From: Spizellomyces punctatus DAOM BR117
Lineage: Eukaryota
DNA length: 64,000 nt
Strand: one strand, 5' to 3'
Assembly: GCA_000182565.2 (NCBI GenBank)
Contig: KQ257467.1
Both the position numbers and the translations under genes were made by a program. A model generated the notes under the pieces. It was not told the origin of the DNA. It worked only from the letters and a program-made list of their open reading frames with translations, and ran no database searches. The stretch's first letter is position 1, and every line of letters begins with the position of its first letter. This document shows positions 1-54,657 of this stretch, one piece after another.

Positions 1-616
1 GAGTCGATGGGATTGCCTGGAAAATTGTTTCCGATTATCAAGCAGTGCTGTAAAGGCAATCTACGGTATTTGAAGAAAAAGTAGTGTGACGGAATATGGT
101 GCTGGCCGTGTGAAAAAAGGAAATTGAACGAAGTTGGGAATGTACAGCCGCCCCGTGTGATTTAGCACACAATTGGGATTTGCCAATCTTTTTTTTATCC
201 GGGGGGTTTTTTATTCCTGTCTTTTGTATAGTTAGATGATGTTGAAAGTCTTGACTGTAATTGTTGTGTTGTGGTGGTTTTGTATCATAATTTGGTGGGT
301 TTATTTATCCTTTGCGTGGTCTGGTGGTAATGAGCGGAAATGAAAAGAATGAAGGGCTCAGCTGGATAAGGGTGTACAAGATTGTAATGCATTGTTGGTA
401 AAAAGAAGTCCCAGAGTAAGGGATTGCAGACTGGTACAAGGCGTTGAGGAAATGGAGATCTTTGGCTGGAGTCAGTATTCTTTAATCTTTTCATGTTGCA
501 GCCTACTTCCTATACAAGCTTTTGCAAACTGATCCTACAGACTATATGGTACATGTGGGAGACGAGTCTATCCAAACTTCGCCTCTTAAACTATTCAAAC
601 GCTACACTAACAATGC

Positions 617-3600
617 CTATGACGACTCTGCAACCTTTGGCTCATCTGGTAGCACACATACTTCCGCATGCGAGACGCCCAAACCATCCACCAAACTCTC
701 ATACACGAACCCTTCAAACGGCTTTGGACCACACACCAAAATCTTTTGCGATGCATCCGACATTGTCCTATTCCACCCCGCAACATTCAATGCCTGGTCC
801 AAGACGGCTTGATCCAGCCTTCCCTCGTGCACGATGCACGAGTCCGAAAACGAAGCTTTTGGCGCTGGTGTGGAAAGAACCCACATGACACGAAGCTGGC
901 CTGGATAGGCCAAGCAAGCTCCCTCAATAAGTTCCCGGCCAATACAGTCATCAACAGAATGTACACACGATAAGAGCGTCACGACGGGGAGGGCCCCACA
1001 TGGGGGATACGTGACGCCCAAGGGGAAGACACCAGACTCGTTGGTGGTTATGTTGCGCCCTTCTGCCCATCCATCATAAGAGTGTGAGTGGACGAGAACT
1101 TGATCGGAGGGAGACAGGGCGAGTTCGTCGGGGTTTTGTGGTGAGTAGGATTGGAAGACTTGGAGGGGAACTTGGGCGGGTAAAAAGAGGGTTGAAAGGA
1201 ATTGAAGGGCTTGAACGAGTGCCGAACCCGCCGAGATGTAAAGAATTTTTTCAGGAATGCTTTGTGTGGATGAGAGGGGACGAGATGGGTGTGTTGAGAA
1301 CGTGCCCACACCGCACGGTCCTCGGAACTTCCATTGTCGTTCCCCTTCTTTAGATCGAGTCAAAAAGGAGGATACGGGCCCTCCAGTGTGTTTGACAATG
1401 ATTTCAAAGGACCCCATAGATCCATTTATGGGAGTGTAGAATCTCGTGTGGATGGTGTTGTTGATGCGCGTTGAGAGCTGGATGGCCTGTCCTGGAACAA
1501 AGTGGGGTGGGTTGGTTGCAGTGTGTGGGTAGAGGATCGTGAATTTGAGCTTGTAGATGGGGGATGAGTGCGAGGGTGGAGTGAGGAGAGTCGACGATAC
1601 GAGGGCGTATCGATGGTATTGGGCTGGAATCCAGGTTGCGGATGAACCTGTGATTTCGCCCACCAGTAAGGTGGAGAGTCTTGCGAGGGCTGCGTTAGTG
1701 TGGGAATGGGTTCTCCGTGACTTTTGAATCAGCCGCCATTCCTGTTCGGTAAAGCTTGTTGAGCCGTACGTTGGTGGGGCGGCTGAGCTCGACCTCGGCG
1801 AGCTAGCCTCCATGAGCGTTTTGCGACGAGGCAAGGTCCTGACGCGGGGCAAGCTATTGTTCAAGTTGCTCTTGCCGTTTATTTCTGGAAGAACAGACGC
1901 ACGGTCGATACCGTCGCTCACATTTTCTCGCCGCAAAAACTCGTCGGGATCTACACCCGCTTCCCCAAAGTAATCGTTGGTAATGTCCGTTCCTGCCACC
2001 GTGTACATAATCAGTTGCCCACCGGGGTGAGAGGACACCCATCGGGAGATATCGTAAACGTATTGACCGTTGGCGACGACAAGAAGTTCTCCGGCGAGGA
2101 TAGCGCTGTCAATATCTCCCCAGGTGTATTTTTGGAGGGGCTTAGAAGGCGTGCTGTGATTGAGTGCTAGATCTTGGGAGGTCTTTGAGAGCTCTTCCTT
2201 AACGGCTGGTGGAGTCGTTTGTTTACCGGGTGTGTACCAGGCATTAACCTTTTTTCCCGAAACTTGCAGCGTCCGTCTCCTGTTCCACCACCCAACTGCC
2301 TCACTACCGACAAACAGCCCCATCCAAAAGACACACACTATCGCAAAGAAAATCCACTGTCCCTTTCCCCTAAAGTACGTTTCCTCCAACGGATACATGA
2401 TATCGATGCCCAAGCCACTCTGCACAAACCCAGTAAAGACTAGGGCCTTTCCAATCCACGAATGCAGGATGCGGAACCATTTATGCCGTTTGATCCATTC
2501 CACGCTCAAGCCGAGACGATTGTAGGTTCCGAGGAAAGCTTGGGTCATGATAAGAGGGAAAAGGATCAAGCCGAGTAGAGGATGCGACCTGAGATCGTGG
2601 TTCTCGCTTCGCGGTGTGTTGCGCGGGTCTTCGGGACGGAGGGCGGCGATGATGATGGAGCAAAAAATGATGGTGAGGAGCGTCGCGAGGGTTTGGGTCG
2701 CAATGTGGATTCTCATCCATCCGGGGCGGGATTTCATATACCGTGACCAAAAGAGTCCAAACGGCATCAAAATACACCAAGAAACGAACATGCCAATTCC
2801 GTGCGCTTCTTTGGAGCGCATGCCATCATTCACGATCCTGTTTGCTCCGTTCAAAAAGTTGATCAGGTGTCTCCCTCTATTCCGTTCGCCGTGATAAAAG
2901 AGGTATCCATCTTTGCCCCGCTCATCTGGGTCCGCATTGAATGCCCAGATAACACTAAACTCCTCATCAATGTCAATGTTCCAGTGGTTGTTGTCAGAGG
3001 GACGTATTGGGCGGCGAAATTCAAAAACAATTGTATTGTCGACAACCGTCTGGAGTAACCCGTCTGTCACCAAGATTTTGTGAGCGGAGGGAACAGGCGG
3101 GGAATACTTTTTGGACGGATCCGACTCTGTGAATAGGATCCGCTTGGTATTCGGGTTGGCGTACAGGATCAACATGTCAGATGTCAACATGGAGGGCCCG
3201 AACCCGAATCCTATCCAAGCGTTCCAAATGCTTTTGCCTTTTTCGCCCTTTTTAGATGCCATCCAGTACTTGGTGGCATTGAAAGTAAGGGCACCATGTA
3301 TACTATCGGTTTCCACCGTCCAGTAAAAGTGAAAAGAATTGGTGGGTTCAAAGTCATCGATTCCATAGGCGAATTCGAGTGAACCGACTGGCAGCTGGAG
3401 GTTGATGGCGGGTTTTCCCGCAGGAACGATGCGAGACGAAGTTGGAGGGGATGGAGTTGGGGATGGGCGACCGGCCTTGTCAGTCTTGACGGATGTTGGC
3501 GTTGGTGTCGTCTTGAGCGGGGTCGTCCCAGTACTGGTTGACGAGACAGTAACTACAGGAGAGACATTCTCATCCAACGTAATCGCCTGCCGTTGTTTAG

Positions 3601-3891
3601 TCGTAAACGTCACCGGCGTATTTGTGGGTCCTACAGTGGGAAGCGCCGACGACGACGACCTATCACACACAAATTAGCTTCCAGTCACTTGCATCACACC
3701 ACACCAAAAGTAACCTACGTTTTGTCATCATCATCGTCATCATGTTTGTCATCATCGCCTAAAAGAATGCGAACTCGATTCAATATCCCAAGATTGTTGT
3801 CGTCGCCGTTATCAATCAAGTCCCGTGAAATCCGCGTAGCTTTCGTCCATTCCACAAGTAAAAGCAGGGGAAACAGGTGGAATATCCGCAT
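617..3891 (-). CDS. Multidomain membrane oxidoreductase: signal peptide, Ser/Thr/Pro-rich linker, DOMON, cytochrome b561, cytochrome b5, FAD-binding and NAD(P)-binding reductase with inserted SH3
   Basis: Exon 1 3891-3719 (MRIFHLFPLLLLVEWTKA signal peptide), GT-AG intron 3718-3660, joined in frame to the 1017-aa ORF. Motifs: DOMON WIGFGFGPSM...YHG; four b561 His (AHGIGM, RIHIATQ, SHPLLG, ILHSWIG); b5 VYDISRWVSSHPGG; RFYTPI, GPVSSFL and ILVCGP of the FNR family; SH3 DELAL...DGWAEG...GVFP. Confidence 0.85.
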
Positions 3892-4411
3892 TTTACGGAA
3901 GGGAATCTGCGGCGAGTAGCCGTTCAATCTGTCCTTTAGGACGAGGGGTGTTCAAATGCTCGAGTGGTTATCGTTCTTGGCAAAAACGTTCGCTCAACAA
4001 AAAACCGATGAATCAAAGAAAGCTGAAAGCAAGCAAACAAGGCAACAAGGGAAGAAATTCTAAAGACCCCTCCTCGCTTGAAAGTCAAAAAGCTTCTCCT
4101 GTGTATCATTATTTAAATTTGAAACATCCCCAACGGCTTGTGTAACTTTGCTTAATTGGCCGCGTTTCAGATTTATAAGAGGAGGCTTAGCTTTTAAAGT
4201 TGGCTTTTGGTAAATTGGCCGTTTGGAACTGTTTGATGAGTGTTTTTGGGTTATTTTGCTGCTAGTTGGTTCATTCCATGAGGTCCTTCTATTCCATAGG
4301 CTGACACAATGGGAGTTGCAGGAATGTACGAATGGGGTTCAATCCTTTCAACGTTTTCACGTCCTTGTTTGTGAATGAAGGAGCTCCGGTATAGGTCTCG
4401 AACACATTCTG

Positions 4412-25552: not shown

Positions 25553-28500
25553 TTACCACTCCAACTCTTTCTTTCCACATCCTGTCGCACATCCCGAATT
25601 CACAATTTCAATTCCACCGTCCGCCTTCACGTCATCCCCTTCTCGAATCATCCATAATCCTGTTCCAAGCTCTGCATCGAGAGTCTCTACAGAGGGTAAG
25701 AGCAACCACACGCCCTTGTCGTCTGCCTTGACAGAAAAGGTGCGAACCGAGTAGTCTTCACCCGAGAGACATGAGCCGTCAACGAGAGAAAAGTTTTTCT
25801 TGTGATTTGGGCAGGAGATTTTTGGGATGGACTTTTGGGTGCCGGTTAGGGATCCAGATAGGACAAAGGCACGCTTGTGTGGACACATCTAAGAAGCAAA
25901 AAGTGTTTTTACAATGTGAGCTTGATTTGAAGCCATTTTAACATTTATAGGGAAACCACCTACGTTTTGAGTAGCAAACCACTTTGTCTCGCCATCGATT
26001 TCCATCCTAAAGACGGCCAATTGGGTCTGCCCGTATTTGACGGTCGCACCGCCTTCTTCAGGAAAGTCTGTCACCGAACCCACACGGATCCACTCCTCTT
26101 CTTTACTAACGGTCGGCTGGGCTGGCTTGGTGAAAACCGGAAGAGGTAACTTTTCAACCTTTTTGGGCCAATTGGCCGGTCGTCGTTGTCCTCGCTCAGT
26201 TATGGTGTCAATGACAACTTCGTTTTCGGGCGTGTTGACGAATTGAGCAAATTCCGCTCGGCGAACAGGATCCTCGACGACTGTTTTCCATTCACTTTTT
26301 AAAAAATTAATCAGTTTCGGGCCTTTTGGAACCAAAATTCCTAGACTTGCCCGATACTCACCATTGATACGTATCAACCAAGTACTGCATCTGCATCTCC
26401 AATTCCTCCCCAATGCCCAAACGATCATCCACGACCACACTCCTCAGATAATCAATACCTCCTTCCAGCTTCTCCAACCACCTTGCAGTCCGCTGCAACC
26501 GATCCGCGGTAGTTATATAAAACATCAAGAAGCGGTCCAGATATTTGATCACCATCTCCTCGCTAACATCGCCGGCGAGGAGGACAGCATGTTTGGGACT
26601 CGACCCGCCGTTTCCGCACACGTAGAGGTTGTACCCCTTGTCAGTGGCAATCAGACCAAAATCTTTCGATTGCGCTTCAGCGCATTCGCGAATGCAGCCT
26701 GATACACCGCCCTTGAGTTTGTGTGGTGATCGGATTCCCTTGTATCTGTTTTCGACGCGAACGGCGAGACCCACAGAGTCGCCTATTCCATATCGACACC
26801 ACGTGCTTCCGACGCAACTCTTGACCGTTCGGAGAGCTTTGCCATATGCATGGCCGGATTCAAACCCAGCCTTGACTAGCTCTTCCCAGATGGAGGGCAG
26901 GAGATGTTTGGGTGCGCCAAAAAGATCGATACGCTGCCCTCCAGTGATCTTGGTGTAGAGACCGTATTTGGATGCGACAGCGCCAATGACAGAGAGTTTG
27001 TCTGGTGTAATTTCTCCTCCTGGGATTCGGGGGACAACAGAGTAAGATCCACCGCGCTGGATGTTGGCGAGGTATCGATCATTTGTGTCCTGGAGGGGAG
27101 CATGCGGCTTGACGAGGATATGGTCGTTCCAGAGCGAGGCAAAGATGGATGCAAACGTGGGTTTGCAAATCTCACAACCATTCCCACCAGTTCCACAGGA
27201 CCGCATAGCTTCTTTGAATGTTCTAATCTTTCTGACCTTTACAATGTCAAACAACTCTCGTCGTGAATACTTGAAATGCTCACACAAAAACACTTCAACA
27301 ACTTTTCCGCTCTTTTTCATTTCAGCGTTGAAAATGTCTGTGACGAGGGGGAGACATCCTCCACACCCGGTACCCGCCTTGGTGCAGGTCTTGACGTCCG
27401 CAATAGAGCAACACCCCTTCTTCGAGACGGCATCAGCAATATCCTTTTTCAAAACGTTATTGCAGGAGCAGACTTGGGCATCGTCGGGAAGGTCATCGTT
27501 GGATTCGTCAGCCTTTTTGCCAAGGATCAGTTCACCAGGAGGTGATGGGAGGACTTTTCCCGATTTGGAGAACGAGAGGAAGCGGGTGTAATCCGACGTA
27601 TCACCTACGAGGATACCACCGAGAAGTTTTGTGCCGTCCTTGGTAAACAACAGGCGTTTGTAAATTCCGGCAAATGGATCCCGGTAAACGAGAGGAGAAC
27701 AAATTTCGGGGTCGGCAAAGTAATCGCCAAAACTTGCTACATGGACGCCTAAAAGTTTGAGTTTGGTAGACATGTCCGCTCCGGTGAACGTGCGTTGAGG
27801 TCCATTGACGAGATTGATGGCGACCGTTTCGGCCATTTCGTATCCTGGTGCGACAAGTCCGTAGACCATTCCGCCGTGCACAACGCATTCCTAAAAGCAA
27901 TAAGACAACATTAGTCATTTTACACCATCTCGAAATTGTACCGATTGAAAGCAGATACTCACGCCAATAGCCCAAACCCCTTCTGCGCTGGTCTTTAATT
28001 CATCATCTACAAGGACACCTCCTCTCGGATGTGTCAGAATCCCGCTCGCTTTTGCCAACTCATCTCTTGGCTTAATGCCAGCCGCAACCACCACGACATC
28101 GGCATCGACTCTCTCCTCATCATCGACAATCACCTGCGTGACACTGTCCAGCTCTTGACCATTGACATCTTGTCCGACAAATCGTCGAATATTGGCATTC
28201 ACACGGCACATGACGCCGATCTTGCTCATTTCATTTTGCAACAGTTGGGCACCTTCCATATCCAATTGCCTGTTCAATAGGCACGGGTTCCGTTCGATGA
28301 CGGTTGTTTTTAGACCAAGATCCACACATGCCTTGGCGGCTTCAAGTCCCAACAGCCCTCCTCCAATCACCACTCCCGCCTTTTTGTCTTTGGCGGATGC
28401 AACAATGAGTTCCAAATCCTTGACTGTTCGATAGACATGGACGCCTTTTAGCTCTTTTCCGATAATTGGCGGCATGAAGGCTTCTGATCCCGTTGCCAAG

Positions 28501-28902
28501 ATGCAGTGATCGTAGGGTACGCTCATCCCGTTTTCGCCCGTCACAATCTTGGCCGTGGTGTCAATGTGAGTGGCTTTGGACATGATGATGGTAATGTTTT
28601 GAGCAGTGTACCACTCGGGATGTTGGATAATGAGCGTTTTCACCGCCCGATGCGTAAACCATGATGTGAGGTTGACTAGAAAGAAAGTAAGTTTTCCATC
28701 TCGCCCAATCATAAAGGAGAGAAAGCTTACCCCGATTGTACGCAACCACATCTTCTTCACAAAATATATGGAGCTCAAACCGCCTGTCCACATCCAATTC
28801 AATCAGCTTTTCGCAGAATCGGAGTCCAACCATGCCCAAGCCACAAACGACGACGCGTTCGCGGACGGGATAGGAAGCGTACTCGGCAACCGACGGTGGC
28901 AT
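25553..28902 (-). CDS. niiA: Assimilatory NAD(P)H nitrite reductase (siroheme; NirB-like plus C-terminal Rieske/NirD domain), multi-exon
   Basis: GLGMVG and GGGLLGLEAA nucleotide motifs; MSTKLKLLGV; BFD-like CSCNNV/GCGGC; siroheme/4Fe-4S KSCVGSTWC and GCIRECAE; Rieske CPHK...CPNHK. Confidence 0.95.
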
Positions 28903-36352: not shown

Positions 36353-38067
36353 GGATGCAGATTGCTAGGATGAAAGAGAATTGAAGATAGAGAAAGGAAT
36401 GCCAGGTCCAGATATTTTATTTTCGTAGTAATCACAGTCCAAGCCGCCCAAGAGGTAAGACAGTAGGGACAGGGAGGCCAGGTTGCAACCAGAATTCGTG
36501 AAGGCAGGCTATCGGTGTAATCTGTTATTTCCTTCCTTCGGAAGCATTGGCGACCACAAGAATGGAGAAATGGTGCCAAATTGTTATGTGAGCCAAGAAA
36601 TAGTAGCAACGGTCAAATGGCGAATCCCTGATGGAATTGCGGATTGTACAAGGTATATAGGACAGCCAGGATTCACGGTTTGAGTGCAGAGACTGAAAAT
36701 ATCAGCCCACTGTGCACGACAGCATAATGATATTTCAAGTAGCAAACAAACAAAAAAAAAAAAAGGCTGGCCAACTGGACGATCATTAGACGAGAGCAGC
36801 TGGAAATCAGGGGGAATGATGTCGTACTAGCTCCACCGGGTGGGTGCGGACACTTTCCCTTGAAGGCATATGGCAGCTGGTGTGTGGGTAACAAGCTGCC
36901 CAAAGATTTTTTTGAAAGAAACTTTCCGGAACACAACCCGTCCAACCCAACAAAAGGCGAGTACGAAAAGGCAAGCCGAATCTGGTTAAGTACGCGAACA
37001 AACGTAACGCTGCCCCCAGATCACAGCTGAGCACCCATTTCAAAAAGCATATGTTGTCTCTTTTTTTGGCTTTGGACGATTTTCACACTTTTTGAGCAAC
37101 TTTCCTTTGTCTTGTGTGTTTTGAGCCCCAATTTTATTCGTTGTGACGACACAACAAAACGTTTGGAACAAAAGCAAAGCCATGAACATCCGAGGGTGTT
37201 TTATGCTTTGTCTAACGTGTTACGATTGCTTTTTTCCTGCTTTATTTCTGGCCACATCGTTCAAGGTTTCCGAACGATGCCCGTCCTTTTTTTTTTTCTT
37301 TCATTTGGACCTTGGCCGTTTTGCACCAAAAAACAGCCACTTTTGAAGAGGCAAAGTACCAAAATGCAAAAGAGCAATGGATGAGCTGATATTTTATTCC
37401 TTTGCACTCGTTTAACCCCAATGAACTACTCGCATATTGCGCTTACTTTGGTGTCCTTGGGGGAAATGTCACACTTTTGCAACCGTTTCAACTACAAGTG
37501 TGAAATGAGATGTCCGAAAGGTAACACGTGATTTGCAAGTTCGAATCTCTCTCAAGACAAAAAGTCGAGTGCGCAATCTCTTTTTTTGTTGCGATTGTTA
37601 ACGTTCATTGCTAGCTTTTGTGAATCAAGGCGTCAAGCATTCCCATCGATCGCGGGGATGCTCGTTGGTTTTATACCGTTCTTGTAACGAACGCGACCGC
37701 TGCATGTCCAATGACCTTGACATGTTGGAATGCCCGAGACGCCCGAGACTCGCTCGAATGAAACGGTCGTAAACCATCAAACCATTGCAAAAAAGACCAA
37801 ACACAATGCTTTCCAATTCCTATGCGCATTCAACACAACCAAAAAAAACACACATGCCCCTGAAGAAAACGACTAATCAGAATAGCATGTCATTTTCCAG
37901 ACAGATGACATCAGCATTACACGTGATTCCGGATCGGCACGCTCTCGCCTGACTTGACCCTTTGGTTTGAACTGCAATCCCTGGGGGAGGTCCGATGGGA
38001 CAGGAGAAGGATGAGCACGCTTCTCTTGAGCAATAACGACATTGAATGACGACTACCTGGCTTTCCA

Positions 38068-40168
38068 ATGGATGTAGTATTGTTGTTACTTGGATTCCTG
38101 CTCGAACGCGCCTGGGCTCTTCCGGTTCCCGTAGAGTCATCAGGCCAAATAGGCGCGCAAACGCTACCCGATGTTAGCACCAAACTCACCGTTCCTTGGG
38201 CGGATGCTGTTATTGGTGCTTCCTACTTTGCCATTCCGGTAGAACTGGCCTTCTTTGTCTTCAAGCTCCCATCAACGACTTTGTATCAAAAATGCGTAGG
38301 GGGACTCTTTGTTGCATTTATTCTATTTTGCGGAATCGGGCACTTTCTGGATGCCAGCCATATGGGCGTTGAATGGGTTATTGCCGATAGATATCTGACG
38401 GCAGGCGTCTCCGCCATTACAGCTATCGCAAGTCCGTATGTCTTGAATTACAGCGTGGAGGCCATCAAGGGATTCTCGGAAGAGTCGAAATTGGTGGAAA
38501 AGCAGCGGGATATGCTGGCAGACGCACAGGCGCTGACCCACCTTGGCAACTGGGAGCTAAGAGAGGACGAAAAAACTGGCGTCCGGTGGATTAATGCATC
38601 CGACGAGTTTTTCCGAATATTTGGCATGGAACCGGATACATATGAAGCCAACAGGATCACTTACGATAGATATTGGAAGTGTGTCGCGCCAGAGGATCGA
38701 GAAAAGATTGACAAGGCGGTTAGCGAAGCTTTGTTGAATGGAGACTCATACCACATCATACAGCGGATTCGAAGGGAGTCGGACAGGAAGGAGGTCTATA
38801 TTCGCGGATATGGAAAGCCTGTGATCCGCGACGGAAAGATTCAAGGGCTCCGTGGGTTCGTATCAAGTGTACAATGGTGTTCTTTGACAATATTCAGCTT
38901 CTAACGTTATGGCGATTGACTGCAGGACGGCGCAAGATATTACCTCCCAAGTCTTTGCTGAAATGGAATTGACTAGGGCAAAGGAAGAGGCGCTCATTGA
39001 ATCCAAGCACAAAGACGTGGTGAGTTTTTGGACTGTACTTTGTATTTGCTGTTGAGTTTTACTTTCTTATTCCGAGATGCCACGTGAATAGTTTCTAGCA
39101 ACCATGAGTCATGAATTGCGCACTCCTCTCACATCCATTATTGGACACGTCGAGCTAATGGACGAAACACCCATGGACGAGACCCAAAAAGAGTACATGT
39201 CCAACGCTAGACGGGCTGCAACCACGCTCTTATCCTTGATCAACGATATCCTTGATTACAGCAAGCTGACCGCTGGAAAGGTTGATTTAGATCTACGTGT
39301 AACCAGTGTAGCCGAGATTCTGGATGATGTTCGCGCCATTTCTAAAGATCTTGGAAAGGAGGTTACTCTACGAGTCGACTCGTACGATGGGCCCAACGTG
39401 ATTGGCGATTCCACTCGACTGAAGCAGATTTTGTTAAACCTTGTCAGCAATGCTGTAAAGTTTACAATGCCTGGTGGATACGTCTTTGTTACCAACACGT
39501 GGACAGTGGACAATGCCGACAGAGTGAACCTCACCATATCGGTCCGAGACACAGGCATTGGTATGTCGGAGCAAGTAATACAACGGCTGTTCAATCCGTT
39601 TACCCAAGCAGACGCATCAACGAGCCGCCGATTTGGTGGGACGGGATTGGGATTATCGATCGTCAAGAAGCTCGTAAATGCCATGGATGGGTCCATCGAA
39701 GTAACTAGCGAGGAAAATAAGGGATCAACTTTCACAGTCCTTTTTAAACTGCCTAAAGCGCACGTCCTTCCACAAGAGGTGCCTGTTCCCGACAAGATGG
39801 GCAGCATGCGTATCCTTGTCGCTGAAGACAACAAGGTTACCCAATCTCTTCTTAAGCGGATGCTGCGTGACTTTACCGTCGACGTGGCTGATAACGGCCG
39901 CCAAGCTGTGGACATGGTGAAAAAGAATGAATCCTATCACATGCTTTTCTGCGACTTGAATATGCCGGTACTGGACGGCCTGGAGGCCACCCGCGAAATT
40001 AGGAAGACGACCCAAGGCCGTGAAATATTCATTGTTGGCTTAACTGCGAATGCGTTCAAAACCGATCGCGAAAACTGTTTAAAAGCTGGGATGAATGACT
40101 ACCTCTCCAAACCGTTCACGAAGCTATCTCTACTGGCTATGATTGCGAAAGCAAAATTGTCCGGGTGA
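38068..40168 (+). CDS. Ethylene-receptor-like hybrid histidine kinase (signal peptide, ETR1-type 3-TM ethylene-binding domain, PAS, HisKA, HATPase, receiver)
   Basis: ADAVIGASYFAIPVEL, FILFCGIGHF, RYLTAGVSAITA; PAS (GNWE...PEDRE...GTAQDIT); MSHELRTPL, NLVSNAVKFT, DTGIGM, GGTGLGL; receiver AEDN...CDLNMP...KP. Introns 38856-38925 and 39020-39091. Confidence 0.9.
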
Positions 40169-40824: not shown

Positions 40825-43800
40825 TCATCTGTTTACAATTCTCCCAACAGCTTTCAAATCCCTTGTCAAATTACCTCCCAAAGTCTTTCCGTTGGCCCAT
40901 TCCCACACTCGTCGCAAACTTGAAACCTTGCCCCAGCTCAAATTCAATACAGCCATCGCAACGTCTTCTTGCATCTCCTGGTTCTCGTCATTCAGTGACA
41001 AAAGTTTCTCCAACTGATCCCTAAACCATTCAACCCCTGGCAAAGGCTGGAAATCTCCCATGGAACCTCTGGCTAATCCTGAGATGAGCGAGAGTGAAAA
41101 TGGTGCCTTGTCGGGGTCATTGAGCTGGGCCCACAACTGCTGAATCACGGCATAGCGTTTTTCCCAAGGCAATTGCTGCCCACATAGTTCAACAGATTTG
41201 ACAAAAGCAACGGAAAACCGCGCGTTCGATCCAATTGATGAGTCATTCAAGACTGTATTCATCTGTCTCGTCAGCAAGTCCTCTGGTGTTAATGTCCCCG
41301 CCTTCAATGTTCCCAATTCGCACTTGTCAAATACGCCCACCCCATCAGTGGTCAAAGCAGTAACGATCGCCTGAAACGAATCGAAAACCGGATCCGACCG
41401 GTCAGACGGCCGTAACGCTTCGGGCCACATTTTGCTCACGTTGTCCAACATAATGATACAATCACTCACAGCACCAACCTCTCGTAATAGGTCGTAACAC
41501 AATACGCGACACCGTTGCAGATCGTTTGTAAAACGACACCAAGTTGTGAAAGCTCGAATCATGCGACACGCGCGCCCCAAGCTGCGTTTGGTAGCCGACG
41601 TGGTGACGAGCGTGTGATGGATCCATGTCATTATTTTGTCCAAGAGTTTCTTGCTGGCATACCGCACGGCCCAACTGAAAACGCATAAGATGATGTGGCG
41701 TTCACGCACAGGCAGATATTCGGATGTTTGCAAGCTTCGCAACATGGGTGGTGCACTCGGTTTAGTGATACCCCCTACCCTTCCGATCAATAGAGCGTGC
41801 GACCGGAAATGTCCCCAACATTGGTCTAAAGCGCATTGAAGGGTGTAAGAGTCACTAGCGGCTCGACTTTGCGGGTTTTTGAAGAAATCCACGAGGGCTG
41901 CAGGTGAGTCCGTATCAATGCTCAAAAGCACGTCCTTGATGACTGCAGAACAAAAAGAGGCCCGTGTCAGCTGTGGAAATGGTAGTTACGGGCATAACAA
42001 GCAACAACATATCCCTGACTCACACGTGACATCATCAACAACTGGCGAACCTTGGCCACTGACCACAGGAGAACTCGGTTTTGTTTTCTGCGCTTTCTCC
42101 GCCGGTACAACTTTCCGGATCTTTCTACTCATGAGGTCGGCAAGGTCCTTTTGCCGACTGGGAAAGAGGCGGTCAGACGATTCCATGGGACAAGGCGGTT
42201 GCGGGGGAGAGATGACATTATCCGCGGGTTTGAATTGAAGATCACTTGTCTGCAGTTTGGTTGGAGGCTCCAGAGCGGCAGATTGCCTGCGAGCTTGCTT
42301 CGATATAGAGGAGGGCGGTACACTTGCTTTGATTGAATCGGTTGTACTACGTGAGGCCGTGGCTGCTGCATTAGAGGTCGTTTGTCCTGCGCTTGAAGTC
42401 TTTTTTCCACCCGAGTCCGCATGCAGTGAAGTTCGCTTACCCCCGGATGCAGTACGTGACACAGGTTGACGTTGGGTACTATTTGATCTCGGTGGCAGTG
42501 AGGATCCTACAGGTTCTGATGCTCCCGAAGATGTAGAGCTGCCTGTTGACATAGTGCGTGACCTTCGCTTGACCTTTTCTACAGAGGGAGCCGCTTTTGA
42601 CTTAGCCGCCATGCTAGGTGCTTTGGCTCCTCCTGTATCTCTTTCCTTTGCAGCCAAAGCACTGGAGCGACTGGGAGGCAATGGCTTTGTTTTGTACCTG
42701 TCGGATGATGTTGTGCTAATGGAGTCGATGCTAGGGGCGCGAGAACGGCTCGCAGTGGTGATGGGCGACGCTCCAAGGTCAAGGGAGGTAGCAAGTTCGT
42801 CTTCCGTAGGAGTAGGGGAACACCTCGGAGTGGGTACTATTTCTGACAACGTCTGCACAGAATTTTGGGTTGCCCTTCGCTTGGAAGGTCGATCTTTGTA
42901 ATCCTCCTCCAGGTCAGACTGCAACTGGAAGTGAAACAATGATTAATGTGATTCTTTATATTAGCGTTTCTCAAGCAGCCTACCTCATCGTTGTCGACTT
43001 TTGTGAGTTTTCTTTTCAAGCAACTTAGGCGCACCTGCTGCTCAGTCACCAACTCTTGCAACGCCATCTGTGTAAAGACTTCATGATTAGAAGGTGGCCC
43101 CCGGTCGGACCAGGTGGCACTGAACATACCTTCTGCTTCGAAAGTGATGCGTTTTCACCTCTCAAACGATCGATCTGTCGTACAAGGCGAGAGACCCCGT
43201 CTTCTGACTGATCAGGTGCCATATGTTTTTCAATTCCCTTTTGCACAGTAGGCTCTTTGGCCTGTGCGCTTGCATTGCTGAGCTGTGCCCGCAACTGCCG
43301 TACTTCATCCTTGTGCCTGGCCCTTTCATCAGCGAGTCGACTGTTGCAAGTACGAAGTGTCTCCTCCTTGTCTTGAAGTTGCGCCTCAAACTCTTTCAGG
43401 CGATCCCTCATCCGTCGCATTTCATTGTCATAACGCTGTTGGACCGTCGCAGCATCCTCATTTACATCGTTGCGTTGGTCGCTTTTCCTGTACCGGGGTA
43501 CCTCAGTCTTTCCAGACGTTTCAGCAGCCGTTACTCGTTGTCGCATATTTTGGATCTCCGCATCTTTTGCTTTCATCCTCGCCTCCATCTCTGAATGCAT
43601 GTCCTTGAGCTTGTGGATCTCTTCATCTTTCTTTCTTAATTGAGAAATTTCAAGCAGTTGATCTTTGCACCGGGTCTCAATCTCCAGCTTCCCCTTTTCA
43701 AGTACTTTAGCTTGATTCTCTAAGGACATTTTCCCCTCTTCTAATATTGTACACCGCTCTTCTGCACTTTTAGCCAGTTTCACGGCCTCCACAGCTTGTA

Positions 43801-44584
43801 TCCTTGCTTCGGCCAACTGCTTTCGTAGTGTATCCATCTCGACCTTCACCGCGTCTTGCTTTGATGCCACTTCCGCGGATTGACATAGAAGCTCGTTAGC
43901 CTTGCACATTTCATCTTTCAGCTTTCTCAACTGATCATCTCTAGTAACCAGAAACGATATCAGTTGGTATGGTGCGACACAGAGCGGATGGCCACCTTGG
44001 TACGCACTTTTGAGCATGCTCCTCCCGAAGTTTGTTCAGAGTATTCTCGGACTGTTGAATCACCACCTTCTGTTGTATGACCTGCCTCTGCCAGTGATTG
44101 TTTGCATCTTTCAGTTTTACCACTTCCGCTTTTGTGCTTGCCAGTGCCGATTCGGTTTTAGCTAATCGAGAAACAGATTGCTTCGAGACAATGAGCTCTT
44201 CACGGATCTTGATTATCTCTTCGCGTAGGTTGATCAATTCCGCTACTGCCTCGTCGCGATCTTTAGCGGTGTTTCCCAGATCACTCTTTAGTTTTGCCAG
44301 TTCTGCAGCATTTTCCGCTTTTTCTTTTAGACATTAAAAAGAGGAATAATATAGGTCAAAAATATTGAAAGCGAGAACCAAAGAAAATGTTGTGTAGAGC
44401 CACCTTTTTCTGCATTTTTACAAAACTCGACCAATTTGTTCGTTTGGATAGCCTTCTCCTTGAACGCCTTCACATTTTTCAAGAGTGCTTGCTTTTCATC
44501 CCCCAACCTCTTCACATCCTCCTTGAGTTTGCCGCATTCTGAGCATGGCGACGCTGGGTCGGCGTTGACCTCAGGACATGCCAT
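40825..44584 (-). CDS. ICE1-like (Little Elongation Complex subunit 1-like) protein: N-terminal CxxC plus coiled coil, Ser-rich linker, C-terminal helical domain
   Basis: Start MACPEVNADPASPCSEC; long heptad-rich exons; C-terminal RMIRAFTTWCRFTNDLQRCRVLCYDLLRE...MW and VELCGQQLPW...LW resemble the ICE1 C-terminus as recalled. The gene itself is well supported; the family call is tentative. Confidence 0.6.
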
Positions 44585-49993: not shown

Positions 49994-52900
49994 ATGGCAG
50001 ATACAAAGCGGAACTCTTGGGCATTTCTCGAGTCCGACCTATCCGCGGTCCCGTCTACCCAATCCAATGCAACTCTGGCGACAACAACACATGGCGCCAG
50101 TAAAGGTGCTTGCGATACTTGTACTTTTTATCGGAACTTTCCACTAACTTCCCCTTACTAGACGTATCTCCGGGCTTTCCACTGACAGCGGAGGAGACGG
50201 CTGCTTATGCTCAGCTTTTCAAGCTTGCCGATTCGCAGGCAACAGGCACTGTTCAGCCAAACGATGCCGTGGCGTTCATGTCAAAATCGCACTTACCACA
50301 GAATGTTTTAAGTGAGGTGCGGGCGAATGTGGATTAGCGGTTGATTGTCACGAATATTGACCTTCCGACCTACTAGATCTGGCAAATCGCGGATTCAGAA
50401 CGCAAAGGTTACCTAACGCAACAAGGCTTTTACAAAGCTCTAAAGTTGATTGCTCTGGCCCAAGCTGGAAAGGCACCCAGTGCCGCATTACTCAATACCT
50501 GTATGTTTCTCGGCGGAATCGGCGGATGTGTGGATTTGTTCTGATGAATTGTGTTTTAGCTGCACCAATCCCAACGTTTGGTGGTATTACGTTACCTGGA
50601 AATGCTAGCCCATCGACACCATCTCCCTTCCCATCTACAGTCGCAAGCCATTTGACTGGCGCCTCTGCGTCTGGATCCCCCTTAAGTGCCGTTGCAACTC
50701 ACCGAACAGGTGGTAGTATTACGACGCACCATACGGGAGGCGGTTTATCTGTACATAGCACCGGCACTGGACGAATAGCATCACATATGACTGGAAGTGG
50801 AGTTGCCTCTCACAGCACCGGGAATGGAGGGGCGTATAATATATCTGCGGAGGAGCGCGAACGATTTACCGTTGCGTTCAATTCATGCAAGCCCTTGGAT
50901 GGGTTTGTAACTGGTGCGTATCAGGCTCTGTGTTGTGGTTGAAGCAGGCGATAAACCATTTGTATCTAGGGGAAGCAGCAAAGGAATTGTTCATCAAATC
51001 CACGTTGCCAGTCGACGTGCTAAGCAAAATCTGGTGAGATGTCTCATCGATGTTTAGCCACACGTAAGACAGAATCAGTGACATATTTTGGCTTGAATCA
51101 GGAATTTGGTCGATACATCGGGCGCCGGAAAACTGGATATCCATCAATTCTCCGCTGCGATGCTTTTAATTACACGGTTGCGACAAGGGGCTTTGCCTTC
51201 GGTACCTGCAACGCTCCCCTCGCATCTTTTAGGCGCGACTACGACCCTCCCGAATTTAGATAGTCCCTCTATAAGTCCAATAAAAGACTTGGGACTCCAT
51301 ACACCTCTGGCCCCTCCCCTTTCGTCGCGGCTTTTGAATCGGATGTCAACGGTCGGGCCGCCCCCTAGCTCTCCCCGCATAGATCGCCGGAGGACCATAA
51401 TTTCTACTGTAGCGTCCCAGATAATGACGTCCCCGGAATGGTTGATCAAAGATGATGAAAAGGCACAGTGCGACCAATTTTTTGATGGTTTAGATAAGGA
51501 CAAAAAAGGCTTCGTGACAGGTAAGAAAATACGCATACTTCCTCTCAAAAATTGGGACCTGTGTTTATGATTTATGAACCAGGGCAGGACAGCTACGAAT
51601 TTTTCACGCGCGCGAAACTACCACAAACGGAACTTGCTAGGATATGGGATCTTGCGGATATTTCCAGAACTGGGCGTCTTTCTAAGGACGAATTTGCAGT
51701 TGCGATGCACTTGATAAAGCTGCGAATGGCCGGGACACCCTTGCCCTCGGTACTCCCGCCGGAGCTGGTTCCGCCATCCCTTCGTATGCAGGCTTTGAAA
51801 GCATTAGGAACTGGCGATAATACATCTGGTCTGGCAGCCTCTCCAAGTGTTGGATCGCAATTATCAGCTGGCGAAACCGATCTGATGGGAGGAATGGGTT
51901 CTGCCCCAAGATCTCTGATCGATGCAAGATGTATGTATTTAAATATGTGCTTTGGTTTCTTGTTAGGTCAGAGTCTTATGTCTCCACTTTTCTGCAGCAC
52001 TATCATTTAGTAAACTGCCTTCAACGCAGAATGCTGCCGAATTGGCGGAACGAGAGGAGGAATTAGCTCAACGAAAAGCAGACCTGCAGTCAGTGGAACA
52101 GCAGCTTGGCAGCGTGCAGCCTTCTGTGGAAGAACTGAGACAGAAGAGGGCTGCTCTGGACTCTGAATTTAGGACCGTCACTGAAAAGAGGAATGAACAG
52201 GCCCTTCAGCTTTCACAGCTCCGTGCTGTATATGAGACTGAAAGCCAGATTGCTCTTGAAACTGAGAATGCACTGATACGCGAAAAACAGATGTTAAATA
52301 TTGCATTGGCGGAATTACAACAAGCACAGCAGACGGTAGCCGCCTTGCAAGCGGAAAAGGGGAACCTCGTGGAACAGCTGGGGCGCACGCAGCATGATAT
52401 CGAGGAGATGAAAAAGCAAATAAAAGAAGCTAACGAGGCGAGCATCCCGTTGCGACAAGAAATAGAAAAGTTGAGGGCCGACCTCAAACAACATCAGCAG
52501 CATCGAGAAATTAACGAGCAGGTGCTCCAAAGCGCGCGGGCTGATTACCAGCAGATACATGCGGACCTTCAACAAGAGCAGGCGCGGTTAGAGCAAGAGA
52601 AGAGTCGTAATGCGCAGGTCGCACAGCAAATCTCCGTACAGACTGCAATAAATGAGAGAGAACGGGAAAAAATGCGAGCTGCTGCAGCACAGCGAGAGAA
52701 GGAACTGGCGGTCTCTCAATCTCTTCCAGCCCTCAATGTCACAACGCGAGACCCTTATGCCGCATTTTCGAGCGTTAGCAGTCCGAGTTCCACTATGTCA
52801 CCTGGTAAATCCCTAGATACCACTTCAGCGAAGGGGTCCTTGATGGATTTGGGCTCTTCTGTTGCACTGAACTCACCGACATTCAGTACCGGCTCGTTAT

Positions 52901-54657
52901 CCGGGACCGGGAAAAAGGCGCCACCACCACCCCCGCCGATGTCGAAAAAGCCTCTGCGCGGCGATCCCGTTGGGCTGAGCCAGACCGATTTGACGCATGT
53001 CCCAGCACCGAAACCGAATGAATCTTTGACGCCAGTCAAGCCGGAAGCATCCACCGCAAGCCCGGCAAGCCAATCTCCGCAACGTAAGATGTCAACTACC
53101 TCAATCTCTTCGCGCAAGTCTGCAAAGGAAGAATTAGATGATTTGCTCGAAATCCATCAGCCTAAAAACAAGAAAAGTCAATCAAGTCTAGCGTCATTTG
53201 GTCCGTCGCCCGTCTCCATGAGACCGGCCTCTCCATCTCCAGTGGGACCATCACCTGCGGCCAGGCAACTGAAGCCGGCGTCGGTCAAATCCTTGACGTT
53301 GAGTGCGTCTGGTGAGAGGCCGCCAGAAGAGGAGGTCTTCGGATCTCAAAATGCGAAGAAGAGTTCGTCGGTGCGTTCTCTGCCTTTGGGAGAATCGCAA
53401 GAAACAGAAAAGGGGGATAACAAGATGGCAAGTACAACATCCGCGCTTGATTTCGCCAGTGCATTCGGAGACCTACCCACAAGTACAGCTCCACCAGCGA
53501 CTGCACCCCCGCCGGCGCCTGTCCGTACTGACAGCGCGACGTTTGGGGAGTCAAATGATCTTCCGGTCACCACAGCTCCTACCGAGTTCAACGACGCTTT
53601 CAGTAGTATAGCACGCGAACAAATAGGAGGCTTCGCGTCCAATGAGTTTGAAGCTGATTTTGATTCTGCCTTCGCAGTTCCTCCCATTAACCAACCGCAA
53701 CCCGTTTCTTCGCCCTTGAGCCAGGAGGGAAGAAAGGGTTCCAGTTCATCATTTCAGGATGGTGCATCGATGAGATCTACCAGCACCAGGCAAGGGGAAC
53801 TGCTAGCATCTTTAGCCACGGTGAATATTGAAGAGGAAATGAAAAACGCCTTCGCGGCATCTGCAAAGCGGGAATCAAACCCACAAGGAAATGGAAAAGC
53901 TGAAACTGCTGACTTTGACGACAAAGCTTTTGGAGCCGTCTCCGCTGCGGACTTTGATGATGACGCATTCAAGTTTGATGCCTCATTTGATGCAGGGGCA
54001 GCCAACTTTACTAGTGGAGATGATGCAGTTGGGGCCTTTGCGGGAGGGTCGGCAACATCAGCAACCGCTGCCAGCTTTGAGGCAGATTTTGCTAATGCAT
54101 TTGGCGCGCCCCCAGCGGCTGGTGGAGATCCGTTCTCTGCAAACAACTTTTCATTTGGGCCCCCTGCTCAGTCACCAGCCTCTTTTGCGGATCTCGATGC
54201 AGCCTTCGGCAGTCCAAGTGAATCGAACGGGACTTCAGACGGAAAAGCAAAAGTGAATGGAAATGGGTTCAATGCTTTTGATGATGCATTCGGGAACTCT
54301 GGAGACTTTGGCAATGCTTTCACAGCGGCAGCACCGGCGTCTCCAAAGAAGCGACCGGTACCGCTTCCGCCACAACGAGCCTCAACCTCGCAGGACGATG
54401 CGGTTGAGGTGCAACAGATTATAGCATTGGGATTTAGTAAAGGTGCGTTTACAGTATTCTTGTATCATTTGTGTTTGATTGGTGGTAACGTATTCTCTTC
54501 GTCGTTTTAGAAGAAGCAGTGAATGCCCTTGAAGTGTAAGTCACTGACTTGGATGTTAGTGCTCGCATTGACATCAGTGTCCTAACGGTCTCTCATCAAT
54601 AACAGGAATGCGTTTGATGTCGCAAAGGCGACAAATTACTTGTTAGATTCGCGGTGA
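49994..54657 (+). CDS. EDE1: Endocytic adaptor Ede1/Eps15 (three EH domains, coiled coil, FxxxF/DPF-rich region, UBA)
   Basis: EH motifs SHLPQNVLSE-IWQIAD, TLPVDVLSKIW and KLPQTELARIWDLAD...FAVAMHLI; coiled coil; C-terminal UBA (IIALGFSK...NAFDVAKATNYLL). Confidence 0.92.

Follow-up and report, generated by a model that had tools for sequence, protein, structure and literature searches.

Reduction across a membrane at the expense of NAD(P)H is treated as the job of FRE and NOX proteins, and the task would be solved a second time by a cytochrome b561 family that carries its own dehydrogenase. A gene in a 64,000-nucleotide stretch (hereafter the window) of contig KQ257467.1 from Spizellomyces punctatus DAOM BR117 (assembly GCA_000182565.2) raises the question of whether one polypeptide could carry electrons from cytosolic NAD(P)H to a heme outside the cell. 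The gene lies on the minus strand at 3891..617, with its ATG at 3891 and its stop at 617, and its 1071-residue product joins a DOMON domain, a cytochrome b561 membrane domain, a cytochrome b5 domain and an FAD/NAD(P) module that holds an SH3 domain. A first-pass annotation, made from the letters alone, had called this a complete trans-membrane electron wire. We find the domains in this order in the window protein and in a large family of relatives, and we lean, with somewhat better than even confidence, towards a single-chain trans-membrane reductase that is fed by NAD(P)H and passes single electrons to Fe(III)/Cu(II)-type acceptors, i.e. a CYBDOM protein with its own cytosolic electron supply.

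Domain architecture of the encoded protein

All features of the gene are on the minus strand. The frame is stop-free for 1018 codons at 617..3673, whereas the longest frame in a shuffled control was 222 codons (100 base shuffles of window positions 1-4000). Exon 1 (3719..3891) carries the start codon, an Asp-rich stretch and a signal-peptide-like N-terminus (approximately residues 1-18), a call made by eye from its short hydrophobic character. The sole GT..AG intron that joins exon 1 in frame to exon 2 (617..3659, an open frame including the stop codon) is predicted at 3660..3718; it is 59 nt long, has a CTAAT branch-like motif and gives a spliced product as long as the database protein P0002 (SPPG_07915, Spizellomyces punctatus; 1071 aa), to which the window protein is 100% identical across the 916 residues queried. 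Contigs from three runs of unrecorded kind, all from one sample that is possibly the window's own source, showed no letter differences where they covered the gene and retained the intron. No splice joint was seen in four runs, the single presumed-RNA run covering just two 151-base pieces and a low-complexity repeat.

The main frame was scanned with Pfam against curated cut-offs, which DOMON, SH3_1, Cyt-b5 and FAD_binding_6 exceeded, and residues 140-1071 were modelled with AlphaFold from a 68-sequence alignment, which gave a mean predicted local distance difference test score (pLDDT) of 86.1, a predicted template modelling score of 0.72 and five membrane helices. Exon 1 is followed by a stalk rich in Thr, Pro and Ser (residues 59-139; 3416..3658), recognised from its composition; many relatives have a peroxidase-like domain at this place. 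The DOMON domain follows at approximately residues 143-331 (2840..3406; Pfam 2e-09), and its fold matches the DOMON of dopamine beta-hydroxylase (Z 15.3, root-mean-square deviation (rmsd) 2.7, 145 aligned). Its predicted heme ligands are Met215 (3188-3190) and His314 (2891-2893), both conserved in the family alignment.

The cytochrome b561 domain (residues 338-526; 2255..2821) has five helices, with His344, His376, His417 and His457 placed one per helix on helices 1-4. The Pfam match to Cytochrom_B561 (E 0.0022) is under the curated cut-off for the window protein, and several relatives exceed it. In agreement with this assignment, the membrane fold matches b561/Dcytb (Z 14.4, rmsd 3.0-3.2, approximately 170 aligned). 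A second model, made of the membrane and b5 parts, matched Dcytb (Z 14.4), a plant b561 (Z 14.1) and the membrane domain of NOX5 (Z 11.7); in these models the b561 and NOX/STEAP membrane folds are related and b561 is the closer to the window protein. Foldseek with this second model returned no match at E <=0.001; b5 and b561 headed its weaker rows. Lys plus Arg number 4, 5 and 5 in the three segments predicted to be cytosolic, against 0, 1 and 0 for Asp plus Glu. With the N-terminus outside and five helices, the C-terminal modules would be cytosolic, so that the predicted topology is consistent with DOMON on the outside and the b5, FAD and NAD modules within.

The cytochrome b5 domain is split. 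Its first part (1925..2134; Pfam Cyt-b5 2.8e-08) carries the HPGG ligand His602 (2027-2029), and its second part (1652..1759) the predicted ligand His711 (1700-1702), recognised by conservation and fold alignment. Between them approximately 85 residues are inserted, and the core of this insertion (residues 637-691; 1760..1924), identified from the His-His spacing and a pLDDT under 50, is disordered and rich in Ser and Arg. The distance between the two heme ligands of a cytochrome b5 is usually approximately 24 residues; here His711 is 109 residues past His602. Nevertheless, bovine b5 aligns to the two parts together with 80/82 residues (rmsd 2.1, Z 9.8). The spacing from HPGG to the second His is 36 residues in six algal-type relatives and 47-180 in the remaining family members. 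The insertion also contains a PPTY motif (1766-1777), with PPVY at the same place in the relative P0003, a motif that resembles a ligand of WW domains of the Rsp5 type.

The C-terminal module starts with an FAD-binding beta-barrel of the cytochrome b5 reductase type (1310..1621; FAD_binding_6 3.3e-07), with an RFYT motif at 1433-1444. The first beta-alpha unit of the NAD(P) domain (1181..1252) contains an altered nucleotide loop, AGSALVQ, at 1211-1231, and the rest of this domain, with its CGP motif at 725-733, lies at 650..988, where it was recognised by fold and by an NAD_binding_1 match below the cut-off (E 0.0081). Inserted within the NAD(P) domain is an SH3 domain (1013..1171), supported by Pfam (SH3_1 2.9e-09, 36.8 bits), by a match to the JIP2 SH3 (1.4e-05) and by the AlphaFold model. 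Residues Y896, D902/E903, W922 and P937 of the SH3 domain are conserved, and the C-terminal PxxY Tyr is absent. The dehydrogenase fold is best matched by cytochrome b5 reductase (Z 21.1, rmsd 2.6, 238 aligned), followed by NOX dehydrogenase domains (Z 17.7 and 16.3). The RxY(T/S) FAD motif, GPxG, CGP and the FNR fold are all present in the window protein, and RxY(T/S) and GPxG are conserved across the family.

The domain identities and their order, the conserved ligands, the folds and a consistent topology are thus established computationally. The first-pass annotation had listed a DOMON with Met/His ligands, a b561 domain with four His, a cytochrome b5 domain, an FNR-type FAD/NAD(P) module and an SH3 domain; the fold matches agree with it for DOMON, b561, b5 and the b5-reductase module, and the Pfam match does so for SH3. 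What it had not described is the split of the b5 domain, the position of SH3 inside the NAD(P) domain, the altered loop, the size of the family and its peroxidase-fused forms.

A widespread family and its variants

The first-pass annotation had treated the protein as a single oddity, and this view did not survive a search for relatives. A word-based search gave 10 proteins, all from chytrid genera, and a profile of those 10 matched 312 representatives at E <=1e-30. The best 150 of these 312 matches were examined, a few of which were multi-SH3 proteins and not members. At least 600 of the 990 profile positions were covered by 106 of 165 stored proteins, and dropping 7 extra cluster members left 99 rows for scoring; some rows are redundant or partial, and the counts below are of rows with a residue at the site. 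Among 30 relatives looked up by name (three without an organism) were chytrids, blastoclads and arbuscular mycorrhizal fungi, and a query with a Glomeromycota member listed 55 proteins, 45 from Glomeromycota genera, 5 from Mortierellaceae, 1 from a chytrid and 4 of algal type (Chrysoparadoxa, two Tribonema and one transcriptome protein), the phyla being our own assignment from genus names. A third search added three algal-type proteins. The domain order recurs in fungi and ochrophyte algae; it is present in Batrachochytrium, and arbuscular mycorrhizal fungi have many copies. Dikarya, animals and plants were absent from the named matches listed. Scores of 0.93 and 0.95 were obtained for an ESM Atlas cluster of 54 members in which Ciliophora is the commonest phylum (Cyt-b5 in 85%, DOMON in 50% and FAD_binding_6 in 41%), a lead that possibly points to ciliate members. 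A metagenome scan returned 68 pattern matches and four loci, one of which (L001) looks like a member of the Glomeromycota type. Another (L004:841-3065) has a compact b5 and then FAD and NAD motifs like those of the family, with a different upstream region; no clear b561 was found in the frames listed for it.

The heme ligands are strongly conserved: Met215 in 80/83 rows and His314 in 83/85 for DOMON; His344 in 90/90, His376 in 70/91, His417 in 91/93 and His457 in 91/93 for b561; and His602 in 97/97 and His711 in 98/98 for b5. His709 was considered as the second b5 ligand and was disfavoured by its conservation (78/98). The window protein has all eight ligands; so do 50 rows out of the 68 with no gap at any of the 12 scored sites, and 39 of those 68 also retain the Arg, the two Gly and the Pro. 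The cytosolic-heme ligand His376 (2705-2707 in the window) is replaced by Lys in 19/91 rows. Those of them that are in the tree make up a larger clade, a pair and a lone branch, which suggests that Lys/His ligation, or loss of that heme, arose more than once.

The nucleotide loop varies more. The usual GxGxxP is absent from the window protein, which is among 7/96 aligned members that have neither the loop-end Gly nor the Pro, whereas the family has the Gly in 89/96 and the Pro in 71/96. The altered loop is common to the window protein, its congeneric Spizellomyces orthologue and P0003, and same-species paralogues have an intact or near-intact loop (IAGGTGITP in P0008 and VCGGAGISP in P0041). 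Since the second Gly and the Pro are missing, NAD(P)H turnover by the window paralogue may be weak or absent. The annotation of an FNR-type module thus holds for the motifs and the fold, and the loop is its exception. Between the window protein and the second Spizellomyces orthologue, we counted 6/113 differences in b5, 5/115 in FAD, 15/226 in NAD plus SH3, 23/195 in DOMON and 22/191 in the membrane part. Change between the congeners is smallest in b5 and FAD; therefore, the cytosolic module is not decaying. After strand 3, the Asp of cytochrome b5 reductase is Ser or Thr in 32/59 family members and the next residue is Arg in 17/58; the window protein reads Ser-Thr. Ser/Thr(-Arg) in place of that Asp favours NADPH, and from these residues the donor is probably NADPH.

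The family takes several forms. The window protein and its paralogue P0008 have DOMON-b561-b5-FAD-NAD with SH3, and forms seen in blastoclads start at b561. A third form adds an N-terminal animal-heme-peroxidase domain to the SH3 form and is found in chytrids, including the third Spizellomyces paralogue P0041, while a fourth is peroxidase-fused without SH3 and occurs in Glomeromycota, Mortierellaceae and algae. Precomputed Pfam results for the 55 listed matches had PF03098 in 52/55 and SH3 in 1/55, and the peroxidase-like fusion is the commonest named form outside chytrids. Peroxidase-fused relatives include P0041, P0011 and P0141, with many copies in Gigaspora margarita and Entrophospora. In 58 fused relatives, the position that we take to be the proximal His is kept in 53/56, the presumed distal His in 1/52 and the presumed ester Asp in 0/52. 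In P0041, the peroxidase-like domain resembles 8s6c and Dictyostelium peroxinectin more than DUOX1. Family members are named 'heme peroxidase' or 'cytochrome b5 domain protein' in the database, and domain surveys of fungal ferric reductases, NOX or peroxidases would miss or misfile the family.

FastTree was run on 132 core regions; in the resulting tree, drawn with the algal sequences as root and without an outgroup, Mortierellaceae group with Glomeromycota and blastoclads with chytrids, several inner nodes being weak. Peroxidase-fused members occur in all these groups, which suggests that the fused form may be the older and that the window protein lost that domain.

A proposed electron path and its alternatives

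In the path that we propose, NAD(P)H, probably NADPH, would transfer a hydride to the FAD of the b5-reductase-type module, which would pass single electrons to the b5 heme (His602/His711). From there they would cross the b561 domain by way of its cytosolic heme (His376/His457) and then its outer heme (His344/His417), reach the DOMON heme (Met215/His314) and leave for a one-electron acceptor outside the cell or in a lumen. Chelates of Fe(III) or Cu(II) are the likeliest acceptor, or another of similarly high potential. Regulation or targeting would be the role of the added SH3 and of the Ser/Arg-rich insertion. We infer cofactor binding, transfer from b5 to b561, the direction of flow, the donor, the acceptor and the location from the architecture. 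Midpoint potentials are approximately 0 mV for b5, positive for b561 hemes and strongly negative for NOX hemes. With such potentials outward flow would be downhill, and metal chelates would fit better than reduction of O2 to superoxide. There is a precedent for the three-heme outer part of the path in the plant CYBDOM HYP1, whose outward currents depend on ascorbate and which reduces both ferric and cupric substrates (PMC10784544).

Several observations weigh against this path. The first step is the doubtful one: the annotated wire was 'complete' in having every module and a topology that could join NAD(P)H in the cytosol to a heme outside the cell, but the altered loop puts its entry in question. 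The second b5 ligand, His711, is a prediction from alignment and fold. With Lys in place of His376 in some members, the wire is not uniform in the family. No gene for iron uptake or for a redox partner was found near the locus in 20 of the 22 window frames of at least 220 aa. Finally, some basic and aromatic residues noted for insect CYBDOMs are kept, and an ascorbate site may not have been lost, as discussed below.

Other explanations have to be set against these data. That the layout is a prediction or assembly artefact fusing two adjacent genes is scarcely credible and largely refuted already. Some database relatives do resemble merged models, e.g. P0062 with a carboxypeptidase, and P0065; however, all the catalytic domains of the window protein lie within the single uninterrupted 1018-codon frame, and the identical order is found in dozens of proteins across distant lineages. 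Many genomes share this architecture, which is therefore no fusion created by gene modelling, and the annotated single polypeptide stands. A more serious alternative, though one we still consider unlikely, is that the family forms a wire but the window paralogue no longer uses NAD(P)H efficiently, being fed instead by (erythro)ascorbate, a separate reductase or a paralogue, or acting as a redox sensor or scaffold via SH3 and the insertion. The altered loop, which P0003 and the congeneric orthologue share with the window protein, the intact or near-intact loops of P0008 and P0041 in the same species, and the conserved SH3 core residues all favour this explanation. Against it, Gly869, the CGP motif and the entire FNR fold are retained, the NAD and SH3 part is more conserved between congeners than DOMON or the membrane part, and the loop varies widely in the family.

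Alternatively, the wire may end on oxygen, the family serving at the cell surface as a NOX/DUOX-like source of superoxide or H2O2. For the family as a whole we rate this as rather improbable, with a higher likelihood for the peroxidase-fused members: an animal-heme-peroxidase domain is present in nearly all the listed matches, as in DUOX, its retained proximal and lost distal His suggest an open heme site, and the same add-ons, namely DOMON, a peroxidase-like domain and an SH3 within the NADPH domain, are known from the FRD superfamily (PMC3591440). Conversely, the window protein has no peroxidase-like domain, the potentials of b5 and b561 hemes, well above those of NOX hemes, disfavour superoxide, the CYBDOM HYP1 is a metal reductase (PMC10784544), and Spizellomyces already has a reported Rboh-type NOX gene (PMC4029949). 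A further arrangement, which we consider quite improbable, is indirect coupling, in which the b5/b5-reductase part regenerates (erythro)ascorbate or feeds cytosolic acceptors and b561 draws on the small molecule and not on b5. CYBDOMs use cytosolic ascorbate (PMC10784544), and the basic residue at H1+23 (62/64) and the Trp at H2-4 (57/64) are kept in the family as in insect CYBDOMs. The model has a long low-confidence linker between helix 5 and b5, which also favours indirect coupling, and b5/b5-reductase systems can reduce the ascorbyl radical. On the other hand, the basic ascorbate positions of Dcytb (H2-7, H2-3 and H4-7) are not conserved in the family, and direct transfer is the simpler reason for a fusion that is fixed in lineages so far apart. 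We rejected the loss of the Dcytb site as proof of self-sufficiency, because the other basic and aromatic residues of insect CYBDOMs are conserved.

The NAD(P)H-fed metal reductase therefore remains the reading that we prefer, and three contrasting Spizellomyces paralogues, with an altered loop, an intact loop and a fused peroxidase, make the question directly testable. In arbuscular mycorrhizal fungi, reduction of metals or production of reactive oxygen species at the surface facing the plant would matter.

Some database models of relatives (P0217, P0062, P0065 and P0208) resemble merged neighbours or tandem copies, with a duplicated module or carboxypeptidase, DFP and Hop2 domains, and are probably annotation artefacts. 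Elsewhere in the window, 26358-28802 (minus strand) encodes domains of an NAD(P)H-type assimilatory nitrite reductase (Pyr_redox_2, Fer2_BFD and NIR_SIR); a nitrate reductase domain was not found among the long window frames scanned. A hybrid histidine kinase at 38050-40168 (plus strand) combines an ethylene-receptor-like N-terminal domain with PAS, HisKA, HATPase and receiver domains, and receptors of this type from early-diverging fungi have been published (PMC5285503). The minus-strand segment 35013-35744 matches rhodopsin-family 7TM receptors (7tm_1 1.9e-07), and open frames of 386, 318, 329 and 847 aa at 40825-44035 (minus strand) and 51967-54510 (plus strand) had no Pfam match at E 0.001.

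Comparison with known redox systems

The first-pass annotation did not recognise the architecture as characterised. In agreement, no description of it or of the locus tags was found in the full-text literature searched, a scope outside which lie supplements and most subscription papers; Iyer et al. 2007, on DOMON, may already depict the fusion. PMC8065604 contained nothing relevant, and the terms searched for did not occur in PMC4771724 and bioRxiv 2021.12.02.471044. Animal-type heme peroxidases have been noted in Mucoromycota, in a paper whose main text does not mention DOMON, b561 or cytochrome b5 (PMC10629195), and fPoxDB lists a single Rboh-type gene for Spizellomyces and no Duox in fungi (PMC4029949).

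The front half of the window protein is that of a CYBDOM, defined by an extracellular Met/His DOMON followed by a b561 core with four His on helices 1-4 (PMC10691727, PMC10784544). It shares this layout with Arabidopsis HYP1/CRR, insect CG8399 and human SDR2/FRRS1. Cytochrome b561 proteins in these papers depend on ascorbate (PMC10691727, PMC10784544), and the known CYBDOMs end after the membrane domain and have cytosolic ascorbate as donor, whereas the window protein adds b5, FAD and NAD(P) with SH3. Its back half is like cytochrome b5 reductase, Ncb5or and nitrate reductase, where b5 is followed by an FNR-type FAD/NAD(P) module, and its best fold and sequence matches are in this group. It differs from them in the attached b561, in the b5 domain that is split in fungi, in the SH3 domain of chytrids and blastoclads, and in the altered loop of the window protein itself.

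FRE/FRO and NOX proteins likewise pass electrons from NAD(P)H through FAD to two membrane hemes in one chain, on a related helical fold. The FRD superfamily is built on a PF01794 core with His pairs on TM3 and TM5, and additions of DOMON, peroxidase-like and SH3-in-NADPH domains to that core have been described (PMC3591440); the window family has added the same three to a b561 core. Its protein differs in having one heme His per helix on four helices and not pairs, in a dehydrogenase nearer to b5 reductase than to NOX, and in an extra b5 heme in the path. PF01794, PF08022 and PF08030 had no match in the window protein at E up to 1, where FAD_binding_6 and NAD_binding_1 alone matched, and some relatives have weak PF08030 matches. 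The window protein is not a FRE/NOX member. The annotation had described its parts as different from those of FRE/NOX, which is right for the ligand pattern and the dehydrogenase family but not for the membrane fold, which they have in common (Z 14.4 versus 11.7).

Many relatives, though not the window protein, resemble DUOX in having a peroxidase-homology domain before a di-heme membrane domain and an FAD/NAD(P) module; in contrast to DUOX, they have DOMON, b561 and b5 in place of an FRD core, and the distal His is lost. Pfam scans of the relatives found no EF-hand. DspNOX of demosponges also has a b561-like domain in one chain with an FAD/NADPH module, but it contains a complete NOX core to which the b561-like helices are extra, and no DOMON or b5 is reported for it (PMC9524095). 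Our family thus appears to be undescribed and apparently reaches a FRE/NOX/DUOX-like design from other modules. More tentatively, and with rather less than even confidence, we suggest that it may be a second NAD(P)H-driven trans-membrane redox system of eukaryotes, assembled independently beside FRE/NOX/DUOX from b561, b5 and b5 reductase. It would be ancient, with members in fungi, in ochrophyte algae and possibly in ciliates and with an expansion in arbuscular mycorrhizal fungi, and it would have acquired accessory domains of the same kinds (DOMON, an SH3 within the NADPH domain and a catalytically altered peroxidase). Its fused form would be a five-heme chain whose last heme, outside the cell, has an open distal site and could reduce O2 or act on an external substrate. 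The matching accessory domains would make FRD and b561 proteins a natural experiment in parallel enzyme assembly.

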